A DNA stretch of 64,000 nucleotides from a virus (IMGVR_UViG_3300028833_000064:1-64000); one strand, 5' to 3'. Counted from the stretch's first letter, positions 50,182 to 64,000 are shown. Notes: generated by a model from the sequence alone, not told the origin. Program-made: numbers and translations.

Positions 50182-51177
50182 TTATTTACACACTTCGTCC
50201 AAAGATGCACTGAGGTGTTTCGAAAATTCTCTGTATTTCTGTGAGTCGAATATCCATCGACCCCTTTTCTCTGAACCGTAGTCAATATCCATCTCCTCGA
50301 AGATGGTGCAAGGATTGGGTTTGAGAATGAATATCTTGTTACTGATGTAGAGTGCTTCCTCCAGTGAGTGGGTGACGTTGATGATGGTATGCTCGGTCTC
50401 CTCTGCAATCTTGATGATGAGGTCTTGAATCTCACGTTTCATCTTGATGTCCAATGCACCTGTTGCTTCGTCGAGGAAAAATACCTTGCTGTTTGATGTA
50501 AGGCATCGTGCAATGGACACTCTCTGCAACTGTCCTCCGGAAAGCTTCGAAGCGTTGGCGTATTTGCCGGCGTGCTCTTCAAGTCCAACAAGCTTGAGTG
50601 TCTCCATCGCCTTTTCACGTGCATCCTTTTTGTCCATCCCTTTCAGGACCATCGGTAGCGCCACGTTGTCGATGACCGTCATCCAATGGAAAGACGAGTA
50701 ACTCTGAAATACCATCGGTACTGATTTATACTCGTCGATGTGCTGTCCGAATATTCGGATGTCACCTTTCTGTGGGGTCATTAATCCAGCGGCCATCTTC
50801 AAAATGCATGATTTACCACATCCACTACCGCCCATTATGCTGACAACTTCGGAGACCATGGGTTTGTCTTCCACCTTGAGTGAGAAGTCGTTGAAAATCT
50901 TGAACTCGTGTTTAGTACCCTCATCGAAGATATGTGTGAGATGGTCAATTTCGAAAGAATATCGTTTTCCATCATCCACAGATATTTTGGGAGATTTTTC
51001 AACCGGAGTCGAAACTGTAGTTGGAACTGTAGTTGTCACAGGAACTGTAGCCGGAACTGTAGTTGACTGGATGGGTTTCATAAATGGATTGTTGGACACC
51101 GGTACCGTAGTTTTGGTCTCAGTCGAATCCTTACTACCATCTATTGGTTTCGAAAATGCCGAAATATTTTTTTTCAT
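50182..51177 (-). CDS. ABC transporter ATP-binding protein (TauB/SsuB-like)
   Basis: GGSGCGKS, VFQ, LSGGQLQR, LDEATGALD, VTH; Thr/Pro-rich N-terminal extension. Confidence 0.93.
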   Translation of the reverse strand: MKKNISAFSKPIDGSKDSTETKTTVPVSNNPFMKPIQSTTVPATVPVTTTVPTTVSTPVEKSPKISVDDGKRYSFEIDHLTHIFDEGTKHEFKIFNDFSLKVEDKPMVSEVVSIMGGSGCGKSCILKMAAGLMTPQKGDIRIFGQHIDEYKSVPMVFQSYSSFHWMTVIDNVALPMVLKGMDKKDAREKAMETLKLVGLEEHAGKYANASKLSGGQLQRVSIARCLTSNSKVFFLDEATGALDIKMKREIQDLIIKIAEETEHTIINVTHSLEEALYISNKIFILKPNPCTIFEEMDIDYGSEKRGRWIFDSQKYREFSKHLSASLDEVCK

Positions 51178-51179
51178 AG

Positions 51180-51989
51180 TTACTTCTTTGTGTGGGGGAA
51201 TATGATTGGTTTCAAGAAATGGAAGAGTCTGTCTTGCAGTAGTCCTATCATCACGATAACGAAGAGGAGGGCGTATATCTCCGGAGTCCTGCTCTGTCGA
51301 CTGAATGTGGAAATCATTGCACCGATTCCTCCGACTTTGTTGAGACTTTCTGCAATGACGACGTATGTGTAACTGATGGCCACAAGACTTCTGATATCAT
51401 CGTATACCTTTTCCATCACATATGGGAAGTACACATACTTGAAAGTCTGCCAGTTTGACATACCCATGGTCTTGGCCGTCTGAAGATAGACATTATCGTT
51501 CACATTGGTTGGGTTCTGCAAGTCGAGTACCTTACCGACAACGCTTGGAAGGGTGAAGATGAAGATACCGAAAGCAAGGAAGAAAGCTTTCATACCGAAG
51601 GCGAGTCCAAAGATGGAGATGAAGATTCCGGATACTGTTGGTAGCGGGAGGTATCGTAGCGCCTCAAAATATTTCCTGAACAACGAGTTGAACATAGGAA
51701 TCATTCCAATCAAGAATCCAAGCGGTATTGCAAAGAGTACGGCAATGAGGTATCCCGAGATATTCAGTGACACCGTATACCATATATTGTCCAACAAGTG
51801 GTATTTCGAGAACAAGTCCGGAACAATGGAGACAACCTTTACTGGGTTAGGGAGAATACCCGGACTGATGATTTCACCAGTCAATGTCACGAGATACCAT
51901 ATTGTTATAAGAAGTACAGCACCTATCGACCCAATAATCCTACCCTCTTTTTTCGAAATTTCCCCACCTGGTTTGAAGTACTTGTTCAT
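51180..51989 (-). CDS. ABC transporter permease (TauC/SsuC-like)
   Basis: Multiple TMs, LP.P..V, EAA-like loop QTAKTMG, AE..G.G. Confidence 0.9.
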   Translation of the reverse strand: MNKYFKPGGEISKKEGRIIGSIGAVLLITIWYLVTLTGEIISPGILPNPVKVVSIVPDLFSKYHLLDNIWYTVSLNISGYLIAVLFAIPLGFLIGMIPMFNSLFRKYFEALRYLPLPTVSGIFISIFGLAFGMKAFFLAFGIFIFTLPSVVGKVLDLQNPTNVNDNVYLQTAKTMGMSNWQTFKYVYFPYVMEKVYDDIRSLVAISYTYVVIAESLNKVGGIGAMISTFSRQSRTPEIYALLFVIVMIGLLQDRLFHFLKPIIFPHTKK

Positions 51990-52003
51990 TTGATTTCTTT
52001 TTT

Positions 52004-52090
52004 AAAAGGGGGTCGTGACTCTGACCCCCTTTTCATGTTAAACCATTTTTACCCTTTTTTTGGAGGGGAGTCAGAACGACCCCCCTCTCT
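52004..52090. terminator. pair of mutually inverted GC-rich hairpins between binding-protein and permease genes
   Basis: GGGGGTCGTGACTCTGACCCCC and the reverse-oriented GGGGGTCGTTCTGACTCCCC. Confidence 0.7.
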
Positions 52091-52101
52091 GTTGTATATT
52101 G

Positions 52102-53634
52102 TTATCGTTGAACCAGCTTCATACTTGTGGTACGGTATTTCTGATTGCTTCCGACGACTCCATCCGAGATTGCACGTTTGGGACCGTTACCCTCGACGAT
52201 GAATCGATTTTTATCTACACCTTGACGACTGAGATAGTTTGCCACACTCTGAGCACGCTGCTTGGACAGTTCAATGTTGTGCTGATAGCTGCCGGTGTTG
52301 TCTGTGTTACCCTCGATTCGGACATAGCAGTTGTTGAACTGTTTGATGATAGGAAGCATCTCACGCTCGATGATAGTCTCTGCATCGACGCTCAATTCAC
52401 TCCCATCGACGGGGAACTCGATAACCACTTCCTTGTCAGAGAATGCTTCGGTAGATTTGACTTGCATCGACGGGGCGGCAAACTTACGTTTAGCGGTACC
52501 CTTTGCAGTCTGGTCATTGGTAAGGTTATTGCTTTTCATCAGAGATTCGATGATAGATGTCTCAGAGATTGTACGCCACGGCATGGTTGCCTTTGCAAGA
52601 CCGATTTCACCGTACACCTGACTCATCTTGGTATAGAGTTTCTCACCGGTGATTTCATCGTATTCAGTGTTCAGACCGAACCAGTTGATGTTGTCTTCGA
52701 GAGTAGCGAAGTTAATCTTGCTGCCGACTGTCAGAACATCCTCCTCCGGAACGTCGAACTCTTTGGCGAACACGTGACATACTTCCTTATACGTCTCGGG
52801 GTTGTTCATCTCCGAATTTGCCCACAGAAGTGCTTCCACAATCTTTTTTGCAGTTTCGGGATTTTCTTTCAACCATTCCTCGTGAGCAAGGAAACCATCG
52901 GTTACAAGGGTCTGGATATCTTTGGTGCTTACCAGGACGTGTGTGCCGGTAGGACCATCCTTGATACAAGCGTCGTCATCGGGACAGAATACCACTGCTG
53001 CATCAGCAGTACCCGCCTTGAACGCCGTTGCAACGTCGGAACCATATCCAGTCGTGATAATCTGCACGTCACTGTTGGAAAGACCATTGGCAGCGAGAGT
53101 ATTGAGTAGGAGAGAATGTGATGCTGTACCTTCCGAGCAGACGATTTTCTTTCCCTTCAAATCCGCCACTCTCTTGATGTTCTTGGTTGCCACGATTGCA
53201 TCTGCACCGGCACTGAAGTTGTGAATCATAAAATAACGGGCGTCTGTCATAGTGCCGGACTGGCTTGCCTCCACGGGATACGAGTCAAGGGTGCAGAAAC
53301 GGAGGGCGTTCTTGTGTTCCTTGAAGTAAGCAGTTGCTCCATCGAAGTCATCCATCTGGATAATCTTGAGGCGGATACCGAAACGCTTGTAGAACTCAGA
53401 CTCCTTGCTTCCGTCTTTGCCTCCGTTGAAAGTGACGAATGGTGCCCAACCTGTATAGGTGTCCACGAGCACGTAGGCGTCGTACTTACTGTTACCGCCG
53501 ACAAGTTTGCCGAGATTGATTCCCGAGTTTTTGGTCCCGAAGAAGACTGCTGCACCGAGCAGACCTACAGCGAGAACGATTGTTAATAGACGGCCGAAAC
53601 CCGTCAATTTTGAAAAAGTGCTTTTGATACTCAT
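52102..53634 (-). CDS. NMT1/SsuA-like substrate-binding protein fused to an OmpA_C peptidoglycan-binding domain
   Basis: N-terminal TM anchor; SAGADAIVA..I..VADLKGK; AFKAGTADAAV; IEGNTDNTG..N..LS..RA.SV..YL..GV...R. Confidence 0.88.
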   Translation of the reverse strand: MSIKSTFSKLTGFGRLLTIVLAVGLLGAAVFFGTKNSGINLGKLVGGNSKYDAYVLVDTYTGWAPFVTFNGGKDGSKESEFYKRFGIRLKIIQMDDFDGATAYFKEHKNALRFCTLDSYPVEASQSGTMTDARYFMIHNFSAGADAIVATKNIKRVADLKGKKIVCSEGTASHSLLLNTLAANGLSNSDVQIITTGYGSDVATAFKAGTADAAVVFCPDDDACIKDGPTGTHVLVSTKDIQTLVTDGFLAHEEWLKENPETAKKIVEALLWANSEMNNPETYKEVCHVFAKEFDVPEEDVLTVGSKINFATLEDNINWFGLNTEYDEITGEKLYTKMSQVYGEIGLAKATMPWRTISETSIIESLMKSNNLTNDQTAKGTAKRKFAAPSMQVKSTEAFSDKEVVIEFPVDGSELSVDAETIIEREMLPIIKQFNNCYVRIEGNTDNTGSYQHNIELSKQRAQSVANYLSRQGVDKNRFIVEGNGPKRAISDGVVGSNQKYRTTSMKLVQR

Positions 53635-53664
53635 AGTTTTTTGATTTTTGAAATGTTGATATTT

Positions 53665-53925
53665 TTATTTGTTGTTATTATGTTTGTTTCTTAAATCTTC
53701 GAGAAACTTCTCATGTTTCTTGTGCTCAGATTTGTTGTGTTTCAACAAAACCAAAAAGATGGTCAATCCGATGGTCAGAAGAATTGCAGCCGTAATCCAT
53801 ATCGGTGATAGCACCCACCACCAAGACCAGTCGATTACATTACAAAGCTTGAGAATGATGAAGGTAATGGTCAAAAGACCGACGAACCCGATTCCACCAC
53901 TTGTTGTTGTTTTTGATTCACTCAT
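53665..53925 (-). CDS. conserved phage membrane protein
   Basis: GIGF.GLLTI.FI.LKL..VIDWSWWWVLSPIW. Confidence 0.8.
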   Translation of the reverse strand: MSESKTTTSGGIGFVGLLTITFIILKLCNVIDWSWWWVLSPIWITAAILLTIGLTIFLVLLKHNKSEHKKHEKFLEDLRNKHNNNK

Positions 53926-54002
53926 TTTTTTTTTCTTTTGATTTCTTATATTTAAAAGATACTATTTTTTTTTCGGTATTTTCGAAAAATGAAGAATATT
54001 TT

Positions 54003-55082
54003 TTAAAATAAATCTTCTTGCAGAACCGAGATTGGCATCCACCACTTTACATGAGTCCGGTTATACAACTCCCACTTTCCGTTGCAATAGGTGTTTACCA
54101 GTACAGTATGTCCATCACAGTCAAGCATGGTTATGTAGTCTCCATCAGTATCCGGATATTCGTCCGTCTTCGGATTTCTTGGGTTTGAAACGGTCTTTGT
54201 CCAAGGAATGGATTTTTCGAGACTTTCCTTTTTTATAGAATATGTTTCTTTTAAATTATTGGTTTTATAGATTGAACCATACCCATGAAAAATACCATTC
54301 GTGTATTCAAGTATAAAACCGGTATTACTTTTGAGAATCTGTAAAATCTCAGACGGACTCATCTTTTTGTCTTCAGTCTTGTCCAATAATGCACGTGTAC
54401 ATACGTTCGCCTCGACGATGGAATCGTCTTCATAGAATGTGTAGGCGTCAACTGGTTCTCCCGTCACCTTGTTGTTTTTATACGGATGTTTGACAATCTC
54501 CTTCACGGTGTTGATTCGCTGACCACTCTTGAATGGTTTCCCCGAAAACTTTACAACCTTGTCGCCGGGTTCAACGACTATGGATTGCTCACGAATGGCT
54601 TTCTTTTCGGATTTCGAAAATCTATGCTCCAAAATATGACTTTTGATTTCATTGACTTTTTTATCGATTTGGTCAATTTCATCATATAAATCTTTAGCGT
54701 CTATGGCGATACCGGCTTCGATGAGATTTTCGAAATCGAATTTGTTTTCGTAGAACCACTTCACGATTTTTCCAATTCCCATTGGACTGAAAAACGAGTC
54801 ATTGGGGAATACCTTATCATACTCAAGTTCCTCCTTATTGGTCATCGACATCATCCGTCTAAGATAGGGTCGAACCAAAACTTCGTCGAGTTTGATGGTT
54901 GTACGGAAAATGTCAAATATATTCGTAACGGTTATTTCCTTCTTCCTTATATCAACGGATACAAGTTTGGCTTTCTCCCATACCACACTTCCGTCATTCC
55001 ATTCGATATGGAGGATAAGGCCGTAGGGCATTCTTGCAGACAACTGCTGCAATAAGATTTCCTGTCTATCTTCTTGTTTCAT
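54003..55082 (-). CDS. multi-domain phage protein
   Basis: L.AR.PYG/PYLR.M.SMT domain, KFSGKPFKSG domain and DUF551-like C-terminus (V.WWMP). Confidence 0.7.
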   Translation of the reverse strand: MKQEDRQEILLQQLSARMPYGLILHIEWNDGSVVWEKAKLVSVDIRKKEITVTNIFDIFRTTIKLDEVLVRPYLRRMMSMTNKEELEYDKVFPNDSFFSPMGIGKIVKWFYENKFDFENLIEAGIAIDAKDLYDEIDQIDKKVNEIKSHILEHRFSKSEKKAIREQSIVVEPGDKVVKFSGKPFKSGQRINTVKEIVKHPYKNNKVTGEPVDAYTFYEDDSIVEANVCTRALLDKTEDKKMSPSEILQILKSNTGFILEYTNGIFHGYGSIYKTNNLKETYSIKKESLEKSIPWTKTVSNPRNPKTDEYPDTDGDYITMLDCDGHTVLVNTYCNGKWELYNRTHVKWWMPISVLQEDLF

Positions 55083-55099
55083 AATTTTATAGATAATGG

Positions 55100-55372
55100 T
55101 TAACATTTTGACAGATATCCTGCCGGATTAATTGATATTGAAACGTCTTCAATTGTCGCTTCGTTCAAGTTAATAACTTCCGATGAATAGGGGTAGTGAC
55201 GCTTCCCTGTGAAATAGTCGGTAAATCCCCAATGACCTTCATCATCTTGTTTGAAAAATTTACCTATGTGGATTTTCTTTCCTGAATAGAAAAGGTAGAC
55301 ATCACCATCCTTTATGCTCGGGTCTTCTGGATTGAACTCCTTGAATCCACCTAAATAAACAGCTCTTTTCAT
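55100..55372 (-). CDS. hypothetical protein
   Basis: Start reassigned to ATG 55372. Confidence 0.7.
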   Translation of the reverse strand: MKRAVYLGGFKEFNPEDPSIKDGDVYLFYSGKKIHIGKFFKQDDEGHWGFTDYFTGKRHYPYSSEVINLNEATIEDVSISINPAGYLSKC

Positions 55373-55376
55373 ATTT

Positions 55377-55970
55377 TTATTTTTTAAGTTTCCAACAGTC
55401 TCCAACCGTTTCTGCACCCGATTCAAGTTCTGACAAAGCCGATACTGCCCATTTCTTCATTGGGTTTTCATCTCTCAGATGCAAGTACCTCTCGATTTTT
55501 TTTCTGACAATACTTCTTTCTTTCTCCGTATCCGGACGGATATTGTACGCTTTCCAAGTTCCGTCTTCTTTTTGAAAGGCTTGGTACTTTATATATTCTC
55601 CACAATATGGGGCGTAGGCGACGACATTGCCTCCACTCCATGGTTCATGTCCGTCGATAAGGGCATGGACATTCTGCAAGAAAACTTGTAGAACCATTAT
55701 GATGTCTCCTTTGTCAAGATAATAACTCAATGGTTTTTCATCACAATATAATTTGTAAAGCATTGTATTTATATCATGTGTCACACATCTCAATACTACA
55801 TAGTAAGGATTCGATTCGTCGGATGAATTCCATATATTGTCCACAATTGTCCGATAATGTCCAATAAGGTCTTTGAACAACGAGTCGTCCATTGTAATCC
55901 AGAATGGATGTTCCTTTATGGCATCATGCTCGGTTCTCAGAATACCGAGTATTTCTTCTCTTGTTTTCAT
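55377..55970 (-). CDS. hypothetical protein
   Basis: 197 aa. Confidence 0.75.
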   Translation of the reverse strand: MKTREEILGILRTEHDAIKEHPFWITMDDSLFKDLIGHYRTIVDNIWNSSDESNPYYVVLRCVTHDINTMLYKLYCDEKPLSYYLDKGDIIMVLQVFLQNVHALIDGHEPWSGGNVVAYAPYCGEYIKYQAFQKEDGTWKAYNIRPDTEKERSIVRKKIERYLHLRDENPMKKWAVSALSELESGAETVGDCWKLKK

Positions 55971-55971
55971 T

Positions 55972-56424
55972 TTACTGTGAAACTTTAAAACCGGATTGCT
56001 CTACAAGTTTGATTGCTTGTTCGAGAGATTTTCTTTTCTGTCTCTCTTCATCCTCTTTTTTCTTTCGTTCTATTTCGATACCTTGGTCAATACGACTCTT
56101 AATCTTCTCGATTCTTTTTTTCGCTTCTTCTTCTGTTTCCGGTTCTGGCCATGAAAGCTCTGTTTCAAACGAAGCTTCCCAATCTGCTCCGTTTGGGTTA
56201 TATTGCTCACTTTCACCAGTCATCACAACCGTTACACAGATGTCGTCATGAGGGATTACACTTGACTCAAGTTCTTTCTTTTTTCTCTTGACGGCATTCA
56301 GTAATTTCCTCAAGTCTCCACTCGTGAGACTGATGATGTTTGAATTATCACAACAATGTTTCTGAAGACGAGTGGTCTTATAGACATTTATTCTATCGTC
56401 GATATTATATCCTCTGTAATTCAT
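55972..56424 (-). CDS. MNYxG family protein, paralog A
   Basis: MNY.G..ID, K..EL, H.D...TG, F.TEL.W.E.E, GxKV shared with 56647..57096. Confidence 0.8.
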   Translation of the reverse strand: MNYRGYNIDDRINVYKTTRLQKHCCDNSNIISLTSGDLRKLLNAVKRKKKELESSVIPHDDICVTVVMTGESEQYNPNGADWEASFETELSWPEPETEEEAKKRIEKIKSRIDQGIEIERKKKEDEERQKRKSLEQAIKLVEQSGFKVSQ

Positions 56425-56642
56425 TTTAACAATGCTTTTAAATCTTCGATTATTGTTTGATTAGTTTCATCCATAGGAAGCATTTTGACAAGGCTGAGTA
56501 GTTCTTTTTTCTCTTCAGCGTATTGTTTGTCTTTCCACTCCGCCATCATGAGAGCCGACAGATAACACTCCATCGAACTACATGCTACATGGTATTGTTT
56601 GTTTTTTTCACTCAGTTCCTGAGCTTTTTCTTCGTTTGTCAT
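56421..56642 (-). CDS. small phage protein
   Basis: MTNEEKA.E...A..MAEWKD motif. Confidence 0.75.
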   Translation of the reverse strand: MTNEEKAQELSEKNKQYHVACSSMECYLSALMMAEWKDKQYAEEKKELLSLVKMLPMDETNQTIIEDLKALLK

Positions 56643-56646
56643 ATCT

Positions 56647-57096
56647 TTAAAATTTTACTGTTCCACCATTTTCTTCGATTGTTTTCACCGCTTCTGCAAT
56701 CTTCTCACGTCTGGCTCGTTCAGCCATTGCTTCGCTGGCAATCCTGCTTTCGATAATCATATCGATTCTGTCTTTTTCCCACTGAATTCGTCTATTTCTT
56801 TCCGCCACACTTTCCATCTCCTCCCAGCACAGTTCGGTGATAAACTCGGCACTTTTGTATTTACCATTCATGGTGATACATTGTTCATCACAACCAGTCA
56901 GTTCTATCTTAACATCACCATGCTTGATTCCTTTCTCATTGAGTTCGGCTTCTTTCTTTATAATGAGTTCCTTCAATTTATCGAGGTCCTCTATTCCGAG
57001 TTCAATATTGTTGGAGTAGTCGTAGGTGAATTTATCCAACTTCTCGTGTCTTATAACATTTTTTGTGTTATCAATATGCTGTCCCTTGTAATTCAT
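56647..57096 (-). CDS. MNYxG family protein, paralog B
   Basis: Paralog of 55972..56424. Confidence 0.8.
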   Translation of the reverse strand: MNYKGQHIDNTKNVIRHEKLDKFTYDYSNNIELGIEDLDKLKELIIKKEAELNEKGIKHGDVKIELTGCDEQCITMNGKYKSAEFITELCWEEMESVAERNRRIQWEKDRIDMIIESRIASEAMAERARREKIAEAVKTIEENGGTVKF

Positions 57097-57099
57097 ATC

Positions 57100-57768
57100 T
57101 TATTCGTTATAACGGTTATAACTAATTTTGTTATCGATGAACCACTTGGCCGCCGCCTCGGCTTCAGCCTTGGTGTTCCATTTCATATTGCCATCTTTGT
57201 CCTTAATGTCGAGATTGCCTATCTTGGCATACCAGTGGTTTCCACCGTAGTGCTTGCAACTCTCCGGAAGTCCCAACGCCAAGTAGTCCATCTTCCCCCA
57301 CTGCATATACCGGACTTCTTCGAGACGGCATTGGGTTTCGATTGGGAACTCCAGTGTATCCTTGACGACCTCATCGACAATCTCATCACCCTCCACCAAC
57401 ATGGTCTCAACCACACCGTTGTCAAGATACATTTCGTGACCTTTTCGAAAATCATTGACTCTGTTGTTGAGGGTCTCGTTTTCCAACCGTACCGCCGCCT
57501 CAATCCAAGAGCACCCCCATACGGATTTATAGACATCGACGGCTTTTGCCCAAGGTGTGATGGCGTGCTCTGTATACACCCAGTTTCCATCGGGTTTTGA
57601 TTCGTCCGGTATAAGATGACTGTGTTCGATATGGTCGTGAACACCGTCACGAATCTCACTTCCGAAGATTTTCTTGAAGTGTTCAACCACCTGCTCTTCA
57701 GTCTCGGGTTTGAAAAACCAGTGACCATCATTTGAACCCTTTCTCCGTATCTTGACAAACTTGTACAT
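57100..57768 (-). CDS. hypothetical protein
   Basis: 222 aa; QW..G.HWYAKIG..KWNT. Confidence 0.8.
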   Translation of the reverse strand: MYKFVKIRRKGSNDGHWFFKPETEEQVVEHFKKIFGSEIRDGVHDHIEHSHLIPDESKPDGNWVYTEHAITPWAKAVDVYKSVWGCSWIEAAVRLENETLNNRVNDFRKGHEMYLDNGVVETMLVEGDEIVDEVVKDTLEFPIETQCRLEEVRYMQWGKMDYLALGLPESCKHYGGNHWYAKIGNLDIKDKDGNMKWNTKAEAEAAAKWFIDNKISYNRYNE

Positions 57769-57772
57769 GGTA

Positions 57773-58354
57773 TCAGATGTTGATTGATTTGACAAACTCT
57801 ATGTGTTCCTTGCTCATTGGAACTCCGGTGAAGTTCACGTTGAGGAAAGCTCTTTTTACTTTCTCGTCCGAACAGTTCTCACGGAGGAAATAGAATGTGA
57901 GGCAGTTTCTTCCCTTGAAGAATCTCTGGGCGGGCTTGCTGAAATCTTTCCAATAGTTGCCGTTGCTGTCGGGGAACTTATTTTCGAAAAAGTCCATGAG
58001 GCAGTTAAGTCTCTGTTTTCCGTCGACCACATCGTGTTCATATCCGGTTTCCTCGAATTTCTTGTAGTCGTTTGTCTTCAACACAATGTATCCACAGTTA
58101 ATCCCGAGATAAATCGAGTCGATGAAGTTCTGCTTATCTTGGAGTGTCCAGCAAAGAGGTCTTTGGTAGAAAACCTTTTTACCGTCTTTATCCACGATGT
58201 ATGGGTCGAAGTTGAATTCCTCACGGGACTGACCATAAACCCAATCAAGTGTCAGTTGGGATACTTGCATGTCGTCATGCCAAGTTCCATTTACTAACGG
58301 ATTAACCCCGTTTTCTGTGAACCTCTTACGTTCAATATTGATATTGTCTTCCAT
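57773..58354 (-). CDS. DUF262 (GmrS/ParB-like) domain protein
   Basis: YQRPLCW...FIDSI, VVDGKQRL, F..VN..G..M. Confidence 0.85.
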   Translation of the reverse strand: MEDNINIERKRFTENGVNPLVNGTWHDDMQVSQLTLDWVYGQSREEFNFDPYIVDKDGKKVFYQRPLCWTLQDKQNFIDSIYLGINCGYIVLKTNDYKKFEETGYEHDVVDGKQRLNCLMDFFENKFPDSNGNYWKDFSKPAQRFFKGRNCLTFYFLRENCSDEKVKRAFLNVNFTGVPMSKEHIEFVKSINI

Positions 58355-58484
58355 TTTATTTTCTTTTAAGTTTATCTTTGATGTCTTCAAGAGTGGTCTT
58401 AATTAAAATGAGTTCAATTAAGATTAAACAAAGAAGAATCTAAATACAAAAATTAATAAAATTCATAATTTATTATTTTTAAGA

Positions 58485-58832
58485 TTATTTTTTAACAACC
58501 ACCCATACATTTCCTTCCTTTACATACATTCCCTTCTCGATGGCGTGGCGTGTGAGCTGTCCGGCGTACTTCCCAATCTTCTTGAAGAGTATCTGAATCT
58601 GTTTCTCTGAGAGTCTCCCATACTTCTGATACTGCTTGCAGAAAGAGGTGAGTATTCCGGAATCGGTACCGGCGAACCCTACACCGTTGAACTCACTGAC
58701 ATCACCACTCTCCTGTTCACTCTCGGTCTGATGCTCATATATTCTGAGCATTGCCTTGATTGCTTTCTGTGGGTCAGTCGTGATTGCTGCCCTGATGGCC
58801 GATTCTATTGCTGATTTAGATTTGTATTCCAT
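58485..58832 (-). CDS. conserved phage protein
   Basis: IY..QT..EQ...NGVGF...D..ILTSF..LSEKQ..KY..QL. Confidence 0.8.
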   Translation of the reverse strand: MEYKSKSAIESAIRAAITTDPQKAIKAMLRIYEHQTESEQESGDVSEFNGVGFAGTDSGILTSFCKQYQKYGRLSEKQIQILFKKIGKYAGQLTRHAIEKGMYVKEGNVWVVVKK

Positions 58833-58849
58833 TTTTCCTTTTATTTTCT

Positions 58850-58958
58850 TGATGCAAAGATACGAACTTTTTTTGAATTACAAAACTTTTTTTTCAAAAA
58901 AAATTAATTTTTTTCGTAACTACTTCATTTAGTGAAAGTAAAAAATGAAATTTTTTTA
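58850..58958 (-). promoter_or_regulatory. ~109-bp promoter cassette, copy 1
   Basis: TTTG-N18-TATCTTTG plus upstream A/T tracts and an imperfect palindrome; identical to 60841-60949. Confidence 0.85.
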
Positions 58959-58990
58959 TCGCTTATAGAAAAATCCCTTGCAAAATCTCC

Positions 58991-59677
58991 TTATTTTTTA
59001 TTTTTTTTTTTCTTATTTTCGGCACTACGGTCTCTTATTCCACGGAAAAGAGCCATGCTCCATTCGGAGATTTGCTGTGGAGTGATGGGGACAATCTCAC
59101 GGTTCAACCATTCGTCTTCCGTCATCCCGTCGATGTTGATGAACATATCGTGCTTAAGATTCTTTACAATGGTTTCCGAGTGGGTGATGACAACAACCCC
59201 GTAGCAGTTGCCGAGATATTTTTCGAAAATTTCGTTGAGATAATTGCAGATACCCACTTGCATCTCACGGCTCATTCCGATTTCAATCTCATCTATGACG
59301 ATGAATGCTTTTTTATTGTCACGGTTTTTTTCGTCTTCCTTGATGACGAGACTGTTCATCATGCTGACGATTGTACCTACCGAGGCGTTGGAAGTGCTGT
59401 CCCATGGGAGGTCGGACAGCATGTGGTCGAGTCCGGTTCCAAACAGTGAACTGCATCCGTTGGTTCTTTTCTCCATCGAGATGGTGGCGATTGGACTCTT
59501 GTCGAGTCCGAGTTTCTCCATTATGGTAAATACGAGTTGTTTTCTAACTACAGATTTACCTGACGAGTTGCTTCCTGTCAGGATGGTCACTTTACCCGGT
59601 TCGATTGATTTGGTGACATCGACGATTCGGTCGATGTGGTTGCTAATATGTTCTGACGATAAATTTGTATAATCCAT
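58991..59677 (-). CDS. stand-alone ABC-type ATPase
   Basis: GSNSSGKS, IVIDEIEIGMS, VITHS. Confidence 0.8.
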   Translation of the reverse strand: MDYTNLSSEHISNHIDRIVDVTKSIEPGKVTILTGSNSSGKSVVRKQLVFTIMEKLGLDKSPIATISMEKRTNGCSSLFGTGLDHMLSDLPWDSTSNASVGTIVSMMNSLVIKEDEKNRDNKKAFIVIDEIEIGMSREMQVGICNYLNEIFEKYLGNCYGVVVITHSETIVKNLKHDMFINIDGMTEDEWLNREIVPITPQQISEWSMALFRGIRDRSAENKKKKNKK

Positions 59678-59679
59678 TT

Positions 59680-60318
59680 TTATATATATTTTTCAGTTAA
59701 TCTTCTTTCTGTGATATGTCTTTCTCCGGACATAAAATACTCCATTTGGTTTTCGAAAACCATATCTTTTCTGACAAATGTAGTGAGAACTCTATATTCT
59801 TTCTTTCGTGTTCCAAATCCAACTCCATCATCCATACTCCAGAATATAGAGTTCTCATGGTCTGGACACTGATAGTTCACACTGGAAAGTATTCTATTCT
59901 TAGTGAAGAAATTGGTTATCAAACCAAGACGGTTGTCAAACTCACACTGGCCTAACCTTTCCACATATCTGTCGAAAAAATGTGGGGCGATGAACAAGAA
60001 TTTGTCACCTTTATTGTGGAGTGAGCAAACCCACACTCTGTTGTTTCTTCTAAACGTAGAGAATGTGAGGGTTTTCAACCCATTCTTCAAATAGTCCCGC
60101 TTTCCATATGTGGAGATTATCAGATGGTACTCAATACCCGAGTTCTTGCTTGTGAAGTCAACCCTGTTGAAATACCGAAGGTCGTCTCCCGTCATTTTAA
60201 GGCAAGCCTTTCTGTACTTAGAATCCGAAATAACAGAGATAACCTTTCTATGAACATAGTCCATTTCTGAAATAATCAGATTCTTAATTTCATCCAATGT
60301 CATTGTGTCTACATACAT
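59680..60318 (-). CDS. hypothetical protein (HFFDRY.ER motif)
   Basis: Start reassigned to ATG 60318. Confidence 0.75.
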   Translation of the reverse strand: MYVDTMTLDEIKNLIISEMDYVHRKVISVISDSKYRKACLKMTGDDLRYFNRVDFTSKNSGIEYHLIISTYGKRDYLKNGLKTLTFSTFRRNNRVWVCSLHNKGDKFLFIAPHFFDRYVERLGQCEFDNRLGLITNFFTKNRILSSVNYQCPDHENSIFWSMDDGVGFGTRKKEYRVLTTFVRKDMVFENQMEYFMSGERHITERRLTEKYI

Positions 60319-60331
60319 GGCTCGGTCGGAT

Positions 60332-60820
60332 TTAAAGTTTGACAATACTTTTAACCGCCTGTGCAAGGTAGTCGTAGTGGAGGAACATGTATGAACTCGG
60401 TTCAACTGGTTCACCACCGTCGTACTGCATTTCGTAGAACGTCTTGTACCCGTCTTCCGTTTCCTTTATCGAAAAGACCGAGAACACATGGTCATTTAAA
60501 GTTGAAAGACTCTTTGCTTTCCTCAAAGCCTTCTCATAGTCGTCTGTGAGATAAAGGGTGTCCATTAACGATTCGGACAATACACAATAGTCAAAGTTGG
60601 GATTCACATACTCTCTACCCAGTGTCATCATAAACTCGTCATGGTCTGACATTTTGTAGTCGGGTTTGTTGGCGATATTAAGAAGTGCTTCAATACACTG
60701 CTCTGTGGTCATTTCCAAATCGGCGGGAGGGTCAATACTCGTTTCAGGGTTATGGAAAAACCTTACTCCATTTGCTGCCCAAATGATGAGTCTTAGTTCT
60801 TTGTCGTCTATTATTTTCAT
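60332..60820 (-). CDS. hypothetical protein
   Basis: 162 aa, first gene after cassette copy 2. Confidence 0.75.
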   Translation of the reverse strand: MKIIDDKELRLIIWAANGVRFFHNPETSIDPPADLEMTTEQCIEALLNIANKPDYKMSDHDEFMMTLGREYVNPNFDYCVLSESLMDTLYLTDDYEKALRKAKSLSTLNDHVFSVFSIKETEDGYKTFYEMQYDGGEPVEPSSYMFLHYDYLAQAVKSIVKL

Positions 60821-60840
60821 TTTGTTTCCTTTTTAATTTC

Positions 60841-60949
60841 TGATGCAAAGATACGAACTTTTTTTGAATTACAAAACTTTTTTTTCAAAAAAAATTAATT
60901 TTTTTCGTAACTACTTCATTTAGTGAAAGTAAAAAATGAAATTTTTTTA
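60841..60949 (-). promoter_or_regulatory. ~109-bp promoter cassette, copy 2
   Basis: Identical to 58850-58958. Confidence 0.85.
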
Positions 60950-61096
60950 CTTAGAATAAAAAAATCCTTTGTAAAATGATAAAAAAGAAACCGGTTTTTC
61001 AAAAAATAGACACCTTTAAAAAGAATCAGACAACTCGTCTCGGTAAGAGGGAGTTATCTGATTTTCGAAAAAAAAAGGAAAACAAGTATGTAGACA

Positions 61097-61288
61097 TCAA
61101 CCTACGTTTTCAAGTATGTATTGTATCAATATTTCTTTTGGAATTTGGTCAAGCATTTCCCTTGCTTTCTTTTTGTTTGCTTCGATGCCTTCAATTGGGA
61201 GACGCTGAGCCACGATAGCAGAACCCTCTTCTACAACCTTATGTTCTCTTCTGTATAGAGATACTGCTGCTTTTATCTTGTCGTTCAT
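61097..61288 (-). CDS. hypothetical protein
   Basis: 63 aa, ATGA overlap. Confidence 0.65.
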   Translation of the reverse strand: MNDKIKAAVSLYRREHKVVEEGSAIVAQRLPIEGIEANKKKAREMLDQIPKEILIQYILENVG

Positions 61289-61830
61289 TTGATTACGTTT
61301 TTTTCGAGTATATCCAAATCAAGGTTTTCGAAAATCTGCATGAATTTTTCAAACTCCGGATTTCTCCAAGCGTTCATGCAGTATGGTCTTGGTTTAGAAT
61401 AGTGGTACCAATTTGTTTTGATGTGTTCTTCGGCCGCTCGTTTAGTCAGGAAGCAACCGGTTTTGTCTGATATTTTTTCATACGCCTCATACTCGTGGGT
61501 ATCGACGATTCTATTGAGGTATTGTCGTGCAAATCCAAGTACATCTTCTTCGAATACTTTATTGATGTGTTTCCATTTGATGCAGATGTCTGCCGGCATG
61601 TCTGACAGGAAATTCTCTTCGATGTATTCGGCATAATCCTCAATCGAGTTGAAAACTCTGATGTCGTGTGTCGAATCTATAATCTTGATACAATCTCCAC
61701 AACCTTCTTCGGTGGGGCGCTCCCCCGATTCCATTATTCCCCAGAATCGGGGGGCGGCCGTACCTTCTGTGCTCTGTTCTCTGAGTTCCTTCTGTAGGGA
61801 TTTCAGAAAGTCAAGCTCTTCTTTTGTCAT
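61285..61830 (-). CDS. conserved phage protein
   Basis: Q.T.G.A.PRFW, FLT..AA..HI..N.YHY, AWRNPE. Confidence 0.8.
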   Translation of the reverse strand: MTKEELDFLKSLQKELREQSTEGTAAPRFWGIMESGERPTEEGCGDCIKIIDSTHDIRVFNSIEDYAEYIEENFLSDMPADICIKWKHINKVFEEDVLGFARQYLNRIVDTHEYEAYEKISDKTGCFLTKRAAEEHIKTNWYHYSKPRPYCMNAWRNPEFEKFMQIFENLDLDILEKNVIK

Positions 61831-61832
61831 AA

Positions 61833-62939
61833 TCAACCTCCGAAATATGACGACTTGTGAGTTTCTCCTGATGTGGAGGCGGGAATAGATTCCGGGGTTT
61901 TAACCTCGGAGAACTCTATCGTCTCGGGTTGAGTTCCGGCACCGATGGCCTGATGGGTGAAACTGATGTTACCGGTGTCTTCAACTGGTTTGTCAAAAAT
62001 TCCAAACCCATTCTTTTCAAAGTCGGCCATAATCTGATTGGCCTTGTCCAAGTTAATGTCGGAGTTGATTTCGAAATTCATCAGGATGTCGTTACTTCCG
62101 TCGATGAGTCTGTTGATTTCGGCAATTGACTGATTGATGGTATCGTTCACAGTCTTCATGGCGAGTTCCTGTTCCATAGAGGAAGTAAGAATACCATGCA
62201 TGATGGAGTTGATGTTTTTCATCGCCGTGCTCTGTGCCACTGCTTGCTCATACTCCTCCACTCGGAAGTCGTGTTCATTCTGAGCATCCTGCACTTTATA
62301 TCCAACAGCAATTTGGAGTTTCTGCATCACTTTCAGATACTTCTCCGAAGTCTGAATTCTTGCACGCTGATTCTCGATTTGCTTCTTGCCTCGGACAATT
62401 TCGTTAGAGACTAATTGAAGCTGAGCCATGAGTTTGGTTCTCTCACTCTGGTCGGTAGTACTCCTGAGTTTGTTTTCGATTGCTGTTTTTTTACGGACGT
62501 TGTTTTCGAAATTCTCTTCGTACTCTTTCAACTTCCGTTTCATTCTTACAAGGATGCTGCCGAGATTCGTCACATTCTTATCTATGATTTGAAGTTTTTC
62601 CTTCATCTCACGGATACCGTTTTCAAGGATGGCGATGGGGTCGATATTGACCACAAGTCCATATACTTTCCTCATAATCTGTAACCACAACAGACTGATA
62701 AGTCTTCGAGTCTTCTTGTTGGTCACGATATAGACGATGGCGGCGATGGCGGCAAGTTCGGCGACGAAAAGAAGCAGGTTTGCTGTTGCTGCAATGAGGA
62801 ACGGGAGTGCAAACTTGAAAAATGCATATCCGATTCCGAGCATTGCCAGTATACCGGTCAGTTTAGCGAACCCACCACCGGGTCTTTTCCACAATTCCTT
62901 GAATTTGTCTTTGGGTTGAAGGGCTACACTGTTGTCCAT
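61833..62939 (-). CDS. two-TM membrane protein with long coiled coil (PspA/IM30-like)
   Basis: N-terminal TM pair, DPIAILE..I.EM, ~200-aa coiled coil. Confidence 0.65.
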   Translation of the reverse strand: MDNSVALQPKDKFKELWKRPGGGFAKLTGILAMLGIGYAFFKFALPFLIAATANLLLFVAELAAIAAIVYIVTNKKTRRLISLLWLQIMRKVYGLVVNIDPIAILENGIREMKEKLQIIDKNVTNLGSILVRMKRKLKEYEENFENNVRKKTAIENKLRSTTDQSERTKLMAQLQLVSNEIVRGKKQIENQRARIQTSEKYLKVMQKLQIAVGYKVQDAQNEHDFRVEEYEQAVAQSTAMKNINSIMHGILTSSMEQELAMKTVNDTINQSIAEINRLIDGSNDILMNFEINSDINLDKANQIMADFEKNGFGIFDKPVEDTGNISFTHQAIGAGTQPETIEFSEVKTPESIPASTSGETHKSSYFGG

Positions 62940-62957
62940 ATTTTTCCTTTCTTGTGT

Positions 62958-63641
62958 TTAAATTGTTAATGATTCGATTTTCTGACGGTCAGTGTTCAGA
63001 ACATCCAGCACAGACTGGATGGAGGCGTTGAACGTCATTCGGTTGTTGTTGATTTCAACCTTTGCTGCTTGCATTGCCATGTTCTTCTGACCGATTTCAT
63101 CCATGAGGGCATCATATTCTGCCTTCATCTGCTGGGCATGGGTTTGCATCTCTGCTATCTCTGCCTCCACACTGGAAACTCTTTCGTGCTCCAATTTGTC
63201 CAACTCACCGAGTCCTGTCTGTTTCTCGGTCTCCACCACACCAAGGTAGAAGTCGATTGCCTGTAGGATGGCGGTCTTGTCGAAGTTCGGGTATTGTCCT
63301 TTCAACACATTGAAGGCTGCCGAAATCTTCTGCTCCAATGTGATTGGGAGACTGTCCAAACTTTGCAGGGTCGTCTTGAGTTCGAGATAGTCGGGACCCG
63401 GCCGGTTCTGGGCGATGATTGCATTCCAAATTCTGTCGATGATGTTTTTGTCTGCCACTGCTGTCGGGGCGGCCCCAGTCTGCTCGATGGTCGCTGTCGG
63501 GGCGAAACTTGTCGAAATTGAACCCATTGAACTCACCGGAATCTGAGCACTTACATTTGTGTTGTCTTGGACAACCTCTTTCGATACTGGTGGGTCTTCC
63601 TTGATGAGAGCTCTTTTGATTGCTTTTCCTATTGATGCCAT
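62958..63641 (-). CDS. coiled-coil protein, likely partner of the PspA-like protein
   Basis: N.PGPDYLE motif and C-terminal coiled coil. Confidence 0.65.
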   Translation of the reverse strand: MASIGKAIKRALIKEDPPVSKEVVQDNTNVSAQIPVSSMGSISTSFAPTATIEQTGAAPTAVADKNIIDRIWNAIIAQNRPGPDYLELKTTLQSLDSLPITLEQKISAAFNVLKGQYPNFDKTAILQAIDFYLGVVETEKQTGLGELDKLEHERVSSVEAEIAEMQTHAQQMKAEYDALMDEIGQKNMAMQAAKVEINNNRMTFNASIQSVLDVLNTDRQKIESLTI

Positions 63642-63679
63642 TTTATTTCTTTTTAATCGTTAGACAATTGTGTTGATTG

Positions 63680-64000
63680 TTAGAAAGCGAGGCGGGCGAC
63701 CAACCAGGGCTGGAAGTTCCAACTACCTTTTCCGTGAATGGAGAGTTTGGCAGGATTGTCGGTCACGTTGAAGAGCATGAGATTCACACCAACATGTACC
63801 ATAGGGGTAATCTTGTAATACACCTTCTGCTCGGTACAGAGATTGAATGTGTTCGGACCCCACGTGTCGAGATAACCCTCGTAGTAGATGTGGTCGAAGT
63901 CGGCGCTGCTATTGATGGAAAACTGCCAATTGTGGCCGCTGCCAAAGTCGTATCGGTACATAGGGGTGAGACTGAAACAGAAGTTACCCAGCAAGAGTTC
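63680..64000 (-). CDS. outer-membrane beta-barrel, DUF5020/Tsx-like (C-terminal part; gene enters from the right edge)
   Basis: Amphipathic strands, EGYLDTW, TEQKVYY, terminal beta-signal ARLAF. Confidence 0.6.
   Translation of the reverse strand, partial: ELLLGNFCFSLTPMYRYDFGSGHNWQFSINSSADFDHIYYEGYLDTWGPNTFNLCTEQKVYYKITPMVHVGVNLMLFNVTDNPAKLSIHGKGSWNFQPWLVARLAF

Follow-up and report, generated by a model that had tools for sequence, protein, structure and literature searches.

The first 64,000 nucleotides of the virus record IMGVR_UViG_3300028833_000064, hereafter the window, carry six genes, all on the minus strand, whose domain content and conserved neighbourhood support a single envelope module that has been split by an insertion in this lineage. 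The products are: (i) an ABC ATPase; (ii) an ABC permease; (iii) a substrate-binding protein (SBP) with an N-terminal membrane anchor and a C-terminal OmpA-like domain; (iv) a coiled-coil protein with two transmembrane (TM) segments, called TMcc; (v) a soluble coiled-coil protein, called cc; and (vi) a small outer-membrane barrel. The best-supported model for their joint action is solute import coupled to inner-membrane maintenance, and we consider it about evenly poised between right and wrong. A first-pass annotation of this DNA, made by a model from the sequence alone, had described a complete ABC importer with a membrane-anchored NMT1-OmpA_C binding protein and, about 8 kb upstream on the same strand, a trio of barrel, coiled-coil and two-TM proteins. 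Both groups are present as described, with a measured distance of 8.2 kb between them. The compositional likeness that it had noticed, a higher G+C content with more C-ending codons, is also recovered: the G+C content at third codon positions (GC3) reaches at least the 90th percentile in all six genes (0.51-0.68, against a genome mean of 0.365, sd 0.10), and the barrel gene has the highest value among the 243 open reading frames (ORFs) of the contig.

The transporter group has the composition of NitT/TauT importers (TauABC, SsuABC, NrtABCD; Transporter Classification 3.A.1.16/17), comprising an ATPase, a permease and an NMT1/SsuA-type SBP, with full catalytic motifs. In the ATPase the Walker A (residues 116-123), Q-loop (Q158), LSGGQ (212), Walker B (232-237) and H-loop (H270) motifs are intact; its top NCBIfam matches (SaoA, NrtCD and TauB-type) all fall under their cutoffs, and its N-terminus carries about 75 additional residues of low complexity, rich in Thr, Pro and Val. 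The permease, matched in NCBIfam by SaoP (1.9e-23) and TauC (1.1e-12), has five hydrophobic segments and an EAA-like loop, 'QTAKTMG', which deviates by a change of E to Q. The SBP is built from a TM anchor (residues 16-34), an NMT1/SsuA-type domain (PF09084, 66.3 bits vs a cutoff of 20.5) whose profile matches the SsuA and TauA structures, a linker of about 70 residues and an OmpA_C domain (PF00691, 60 bits vs a cutoff of 27.2); phrog_25518 matches it over the full length. The OmpA domain was aligned to solved OmpA-like domains, and residues D445 and R460 of the peptidoglycan-binding signature (TD...RA) are invariant in 16 diverse homologs (alignment A3). Many cleft-type residues of the binding domain are likewise invariant among homologs. 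Judged by these motifs, the importer looks catalytically competent and ligand-specific. It differs from the NitT/TauT systems in three respects: its SBP combines a TM anchor with a fusion to OmpA_C, its ATPase is extended at the N-terminus and no match reaches the equivalog level.

Two G+C-rich hairpins are predicted in the spacer that separates the SBP and permease genes; a U-run follows the second, and none of 200 shuffled sequences was as stable. Hairpins of different sequence stand at the same spot in three relatives (L012, L005 and L013). The spacer is a likely candidate for an attenuator or an mRNA stabiliser. This would fit the classical importer operon, in which more binding protein is produced than permease and ATPase.

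The helices that follow the two TM segments of TMcc form, in the AlphaFold2 model, a long helical hairpin (residues 101-160 and 164-244), and the protein ends in a disordered tail with a conserved terminal YF. The hairpin is the part that may be shared with PspA/Vipp1 (IM30, bacterial ESCRT-III). The five top Foldseek matches are all Vipp1, at weak E-values of 3e-3 to 1.6e-2; in a fold search of the atlas all TM-scores (template modelling) stayed below 0.5, and the TMcc profile retrieved only generic coiled coils from the PDB sequences. The PspA family model PF04012 appears below threshold in 7 of 24 TMcc family members (best E 0.0059) and gives 26-28 bits, vs a cutoff of 33.9 (E about 5e-6), on two TMcc proteins from bacterial modules. 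Aligned by hhalign to four genuine Bacteroidales PspAs, the TMcc family (alignment A2) scores 67% (E 5e-5, 107 columns), in register from a 'DP' motif at the start of helix alpha1. In contrast to PspA/Vipp1, TMcc is without the N-terminal amphipathic helix alpha0 and has a two-TM hairpin. Neither PspBC nor PspF turned up among the genes inspected near the module, and the Snf7 Pfam model matched nothing in the contig. We read TMcc as a remote member of the PspA superfamily, in which the two-TM anchor would take the place of the amphipathic helix.

The second coiled-coil protein, cc, begins with a basic-hydrophobic peptide, continues through a low-complexity linker and the motif 'NxPGPDYLELK' (with NRPG in the copy of the window and NLPG in most of the family) and ends in a coiled coil. 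Its family comprises 402 cluster representatives, nearly all of 210-245 residues and with conserved terminal peptides. No Pfam family emerged from a scan of 30 members, which gave coiled-coil noise only, and a feature search of the atlas returned unnamed clusters. Against genuine PspA the cc family scores 1.4% in hhalign, and in PHROGs there is no match for either cc or the barrel. By these searches the cc family is without a detectable relative. A predicted complex of cc with TMcc (residues 75-368) scored 0.00, a value that gives no verdict either way.

The barrel protein possesses a signal peptide and a C-terminal Phe, and its AlphaFold2 model has 12 strands (predicted local distance difference test, pLDDT, 82). 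In VIA-align the nucleoside channel Tsx (1TLW) ranks first (Z 17.6, root-mean-square deviation 3.5 Å, 188 aligned residues), and the next matches, OMPLA, NanC, KdgM and PcoB, follow at Z 14.8-15.1, i.e. 2.5 under Tsx; Foldseek places PcoB, KdgM, NanC and intimin on top. The modelled protein resembles Tsx and the small porins KdgM and NanC in being 12-stranded, monomeric and of about 200 residues, and it is unlike them in its sequence, with an identity of 9-13% and no Pfam membership. A Pfam search at E<=10 gave no match, neither to Tsx (PF03502) nor to DUF5020 (PF16412); its 37 homologs carry no precomputed Pfam family, and in the nearest named atlas cluster just 11% of the members have DUF5020. 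Of the earlier designation as a DUF5020/Tsx-like barrel, the likeness in predicted fold is thus retained and the family assignment is withdrawn: the modelled fold is Tsx-like, and the protein is matched by neither the Tsx nor the DUF5020 model of Pfam. With 37 homologs, the barrel has a narrower distribution than the transporter.

The union of the two gene groups into one system, which the first-pass annotation had offered as its own deduction, is borne out by their arrangement elsewhere. Every one of the 15 Lak megaphage records encodes a full-length homolog of the SBP, about 43% identical, and others come from an uncultured phage of 735 kb (36% identity) and from Bacillus phage G (27%). In Lak-C1 and the 735 kb phage the cc and TMcc homologs stand immediately upstream of the SBP, permease and ATPase genes. 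At least seven phage lineages besides that of the window have cc-TMcc-SBP/OmpA-permease-ATPase as an unbroken series (Lak-C1, LR756501, L008, L013, L014, L010 and the P0084 contig). The same gene order is kept around cc homologs of only about 22% identity, and TMcc and SBP-OmpA still come next after such distant cc proteins. Clusters of the SBP, TMcc and barrel proteins also lie on small contigs of identical size, namely 5,835 bp (P0028/P0142), 3,832 bp (P0046/P0164) and 4,181 bp (P0228/P0125), with one further shared size of 16,503 bp (P0011/P0140/P0222); agreement at sizes as low as 3.8-5.8 kb implies that the genes are adjacent. In two diverged phages (L010 and the P0230 contig) the barrel gene lies inside the operon, directly upstream of the permease gene, the two orders being barrel-permease-x-ATPase-cc-TMcc-SBP and cc-TMcc-SBP-x-barrel-permease-ATPase. 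The gene of 333 residues between the SBP and barrel genes of L010 has no Pfam family and no match to the TonB_C protein encoded on the contig of the window. In all, the fused SBP has 988 cluster-level homologs (E<=1e-10), several of those listed on contigs of 300-400 kb, so the statement that complete ABC importers are rare in phages does not hold for this family. A megablast of the ABC operon against phage records gave no match, and a pattern scan of IMG/VR retrieved 4 loci only.

The split layout, with an insertion of 8-9 kb made of syntenic small genes, is confined to the clade of the window, i.e. L012 (90%) and L005 (80%). The inserted block (Table 1) divides the ancestral operon and is not a part of the system. 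Two further genes border it. The ORF of 86 residues recurs at the corresponding place in L005, L006 and L012 and has an above-cutoff match to Tmemb_185A (PF10269, 3.9e-7) and a weak holin-like match; it is possibly an accessory of the close relatives only. The gene for the phrog_3205 protein follows TMcc in L005 and L012 and lies two genes upstream of cc in L010; its product is a loosely linked accessory.

Table 1. Module genes and neighbouring features of the window (positions counted from the first nucleotide of the window)
Feature	Position	Strand	Details
ABC ATPase, 331 aa	50182..51177	-	PF00005 1.4e-26, 94 bits vs cutoff 25
ABC permease, 269 aa, BPD_transp_1, TauC/SaoP-like	51180..51989	-	PF00528 2.7e-7, 30.9 bits vs cutoff 26.4
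SBP-permease intergenic spacer, 112 nt, two G+C-rich hairpins	51990..52101	-	minimum free energy -41.9 kcal/mol, z -5.5
Binding protein (SBP), 510 aa	52102..53634	-	PF09084 and PF00691 over cutoffs
TMcc, 368 aa	61833..62939	-	TM 27-45 and 55-73, then long helices
cc, 227 aa, soluble	62958..63641	-	alignment A4
Barrel, C-terminal 106 aa of 220 aa in the window	63680..64000	-	full ORF at contig 63680-64342
Small two-TM ORF, 86 aa	53665..53925	-	TM 12-30 and 42-60; just upstream of SBP gene
Lineage-specific block, about 14 small genes	53926..61284		syntenic in L005/L012; absent where module is contiguous
Protein of 183 aa, phrog_3205	61285..61836	-	start overlaps TMcc stop

The module is not restricted to phages. 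When species-representative genomes were scanned, ten loci with the SBP-OmpA gene emerged, in rumen metagenome-assembled genomes (MAGs) of the Paludibacteraceae type, and at 8 of the 10 the five-gene core (cc, TMcc, SBP, permease and ATPase) is complete and contiguous. In L025, a contig of 904 kb, the module is flanked by genes for MiaA, a major facilitator superfamily transporter, PorV, a tRNA methyltransferase and NIF3. In L034, a contig of 4.86 Mb, one flank holds a PBP1C-type protein, CstA and a hydrolase, and the other a two-component system and a polysaccharide lyase. Among the sampled genomes, the TMcc profile matches 17 of 151 from Paludibacteraceae and 25 of 401 (about 6%) from Bacteroidales. 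In some Bacteroidales the five-gene core is thus a chromosomal operon with housekeeping flanks, and the term 'phage-built', applied earlier to the system, is misleading. The two gene groups co-occur in other phages, and the core does so in Bacteroidales; the absence of such co-occurrence was what would have spoken against a single system.

A maximum-likelihood tree of the binding proteins, of a quick type and rooted at the midpoint, so that it gives no direction of transfer, needs at least 3 switches between phage and bacterium. The Paludibacteraceae clade falls within the phage sequences; a second clade from Bacteroidales branches outside. In L020-L026, Paludibacteraceae MAGs that represent different species-level genomes, the binding proteins are nearly identical (branch lengths 0.001-0.02), which suggests either close species or a recent spread of the operon.

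The system is real and coherent, and it has already been noticed in outline by bioinformatics; no experimental work on it was found in the literature. Using comparative genomics only, Ravi et al. (2024, mSystems, PMC11237479) described bacterial operons of a TM-PspA/Snf7 protein, an ABC ATPase, a permease and a PBP-OmpA protein, with a third coiled-coil protein in Bacteroidetes neighbourhoods and an AAA+ ATPase in some examples; OGG56892.1 is an example protein of that paper. As judged from the operon description, the same TM-PspA-like, ATPase, permease and PBP-OmpA components co-occur here in phages and on Bacteroidales chromosomes; the window copy differs in being phage-borne, split by 8 kb, supplemented with a barrel and without a detected AAA+ ATPase. 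A preprint by Yuan & Chen (October 2026, bioRxiv 10.64898/2026.10.24.761521) counted 15 huge-phage PspA genes beside complete ABC transporters and reported phage outer-membrane proteins of 10-22 strands beside transport genes, including 'nitrate' ones. That survey-level count may or may not include the present family; it agrees with our data in placing PspA beside a complete ABC transporter, and it does not contain the OmpA fusion, the cc partner family, the barrel within the operon, the cellular operon or the split form. To these accounts the present analysis adds the six-part anatomy, the cc family, the barrel-in-operon orders and the split form, as well as the chromosomal copies, the exchange between phages and bacteria and the negative result for the coiled-coil neighbours in phage G.

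If the parts work together, as their linkage suggests, they would constitute a widespread envelope system in which a peptidoglycan-tethered ABC importer is coupled to ESCRT-III/PspA-like proteins, and which has been exchanged repeatedly between the chromosomes of Bacteroidales and the largest known gut phages (Lak, the 735 kb phage and the relatives of about 380 kb). The identity of the ligand would reveal what huge phages must bring into the cell, and a coupling of ABC transporter to PspA, if shown, would be a new mode of regulation for bacterial ESCRT-III-like proteins. Genetic work, out of reach in the uncultivated phages, could start from the cellular copies in Bacteroidales.

In the model of solute import coupled to inner-membrane maintenance, the core would be the five genes, i.e. 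a NitT/TauT-type importer and two partners on the cytoplasmic face, TMcc, permanently anchored in the membrane, and the soluble cc. The SBP would be tethered twice, by its N-terminal helix in the inner membrane and by its OmpA-like domain on the peptidoglycan, and the sixth gene, added in this lineage, would provide a small 12-stranded Tsx-like channel in the outer membrane. During infection this channel would let a small solute into the periplasm, the wall-tethered SBP would pass it to the permease and ATPase for ATP-driven import, and the PspA-like pair would stabilise or organise the inner membrane at or around the transporter. The cytoplasmic pair is not regarded as incidental because it is too tightly co-conserved with the transporter. 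What the sequences show directly is the gene content, the architecture of the domains, the intact motifs for ATP hydrolysis and peptidoglycan binding and the conservation of the linkage; the direction of import, the physical association of the parts, the stabilisation of the membrane and any substrate are what we infer here.

Several observations weigh against this model. Neither the SBP nor the ATPase attains an NCBIfam equivalog score by which a substrate (taurine, sulfonate, nitrate, urea-related or Sao) could be named, the best scores being 81 bits vs a cutoff of 334 for the SBP and 158 vs 360 for the ATPase. A simple nutrient importer would not usually have such a double tether, which may instead indicate a structural or sensing function. 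As for TMcc, its membership in the PspA superfamily is only remote: in VIA-align, Vipp1 (Z 10.1-10.3) is level with the hairpins of BAR, SMC and AhlC, and the window protein had no match in Pfam at E<=10, PF04012 included, so that the first description of the two-TM protein as PspA-like survives as a remote likeness without a family assignment. The barrel is missing from Lak, LR756501 and phage G and from three Paludibacteraceae genomes that were searched with the barrel profile, which makes an outer-membrane step dispensable. In phage G the demonstrable relatives are the permease, the ATPase and two SBP-OmpA paralogs. Since this phage, whose host is Gram-positive, has the transporter and no outer-membrane part, a route from the outer membrane to the cytoplasm, as proposed in the first-pass annotation, cannot be the core function. 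The proposal that phage G carries all five components was dropped, as hhalign of gp246 vs cc and of gp247 vs TMcc gave 1-2%.

The main rival, which we hold to be doubtful and still worth serious attention, is a membrane-remodelling or stress device, in which the ABC ATPase and permease and the wall-tethered SBP would work for the ESCRT-III/PspA-like pair, as its sensor, its anchor or its source of energy. They would thereby stand in for the AAA+ ATPases (PspF, Vps4) of other systems, and the device would keep the inner membrane intact or reshape it in the long and bulky infection by a huge phage. The co-conservation of TMcc and cc with the transporter down to about 22% identity favours it, as do the N-terminal extension of the ATPase, the conserved end motif on the disordered tail of TMcc and the SPFH/Band_7 and VWA genes nearby in L010. 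No AAA+ ATPase was found in the contig: PF00004 is without a match in its 185 kb, an estimated 63% of the genome, and the AAA Pfam models matched nothing there. Ravi et al. (PMC11237479), too, proposed that membrane remodelling is linked to transport. The permease, however, has the type I importer fold (BPD_transp_1) and not that of mechanotransmission proteins (FtsX/MacB), the invariant cleft-type residues of the binding domain are consistent with a real ligand, and phage G has the transporter next to coiled-coil neighbours that are not demonstrably homologous. A bolder form of this reading is unlikely: the ABC transporter would not be mainly a nutrient importer but the ATP-driven partner of the ESCRT-III-like pair, gated by a ligand or by the state of the wall. 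It would be a bacterial and phage counterpart of Vps4-ESCRT-III with an ABC ATPase in place of the AAA+ motor, by which huge phages would preserve or remodel the inner membrane of the infected host.

Scavenging of nucleosides or nucleobase precursors for the replication of a very large genome, through the Tsx-like channel, the SBP and the importer, was the function first suggested for these genes, and we judge it quite unlikely. The best structural match of the barrel is indeed a nucleoside channel, NMT1/THI5-type proteins include binders of pyrimidine precursors, and salvage genes occur among the neighbours of the module (an IMPDH-like gene in L008, PurA-like and nucleoside deoxyribosyltransferase genes on the P0084 contig, and NAPRTase, NAD synthase, NT5C and nicotinamidase-like genes in L010). 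Yet the identity of the barrel to Tsx is 13% with no Tsx/DUF5020 Pfam match, KdgM, NanC and PcoB are nearly as close to it, and most carriers of the module are without the barrel. Known nucleoside ABC importers use binding proteins of the BMP family, not of the NitT/TauT type, and to our knowledge no NitT/TauT binding protein binds nucleosides. Very improbable, finally, is superinfection exclusion or receptor masking, by which the outer-membrane protein and a wall-bound complex would alter the envelope and block other phages. The codon bias of the barrel gene, the strongest in the contig, would suit it, and phage outer-membrane proteins can block receptors, as Lom does with LamB (bioRxiv 10.64898/2026.10.24.761521), but it leaves both the conserved, intact ABC importer and the housekeeping-flanked chromosomal operons unexplained.

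The window is the start of a single linear contig of 185,388 bp with 36% G+C, for which CheckV estimates a completeness of 63% and which has no terminal repeats. The contig carries phage replication genes, e.g. one for a Dda-like helicase. Because close relatives of its genes sit on contigs of 377-390 kb, the record is probably a fragment, about half, of a huge phage genome. The bin labels of two homologs at NCBI give a weak indication of Prevotella as the host. Scans for sigma-70 promoters and terminators performed no better than chance.

A phage TonB_C protein of 333 residues with an N-terminal TM segment (PF03544, 1.4e-15) is encoded at contig 69851-70852 (L001:9851-10852), about 5.5 kb upstream of the barrel gene, and a gene of the sigma-70 family (L001:8184-9059) lies in between. 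No TonB-dependent receptor was seen near it. The synteny of both genes is kept in the 377 kb relative L037. The TonB_C gene was rejected as a member of the module, its synteny being restricted to the clade and the sigma-factor gene separating it from the barrel.

In L010 the ATPase gene is followed at 0.5 kb by an SPFH/Band_7 gene, and a VWA gene stands just upstream of cc (L010:13064-14080 and L010:4770-5462), and the salvage genes named above are found on both sides of the module. In Lak-C1 (L002:6924-22349), where TAG is read as Gln, the two large ORFs that directly precede the module have 17 and 8 TAGs in frame, and none occurs in the module ORFs or the genes after them. Recoding has been proposed to mark late genes in such phages; if so, the Lak module may be readable early, in the standard-code part of the genome.

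The inserted block of the window holds, at 55972-56424 and 56647-57096, two adjacent paralogs of 150 and 149 residues with charged coiled-coil tails and similar N-termini (MNYRGYNIDD and MNYKGQHIDN). Further along, at 57773-58390 and 58991-59677, it encodes a protein whose L005 homolog (56% identical) bears PF03235 (GmrSD_N/DUF262) and a small P-loop protein with weak AAA_15/AAA_21 matches; these two may be nuclease or defence-related cargo.

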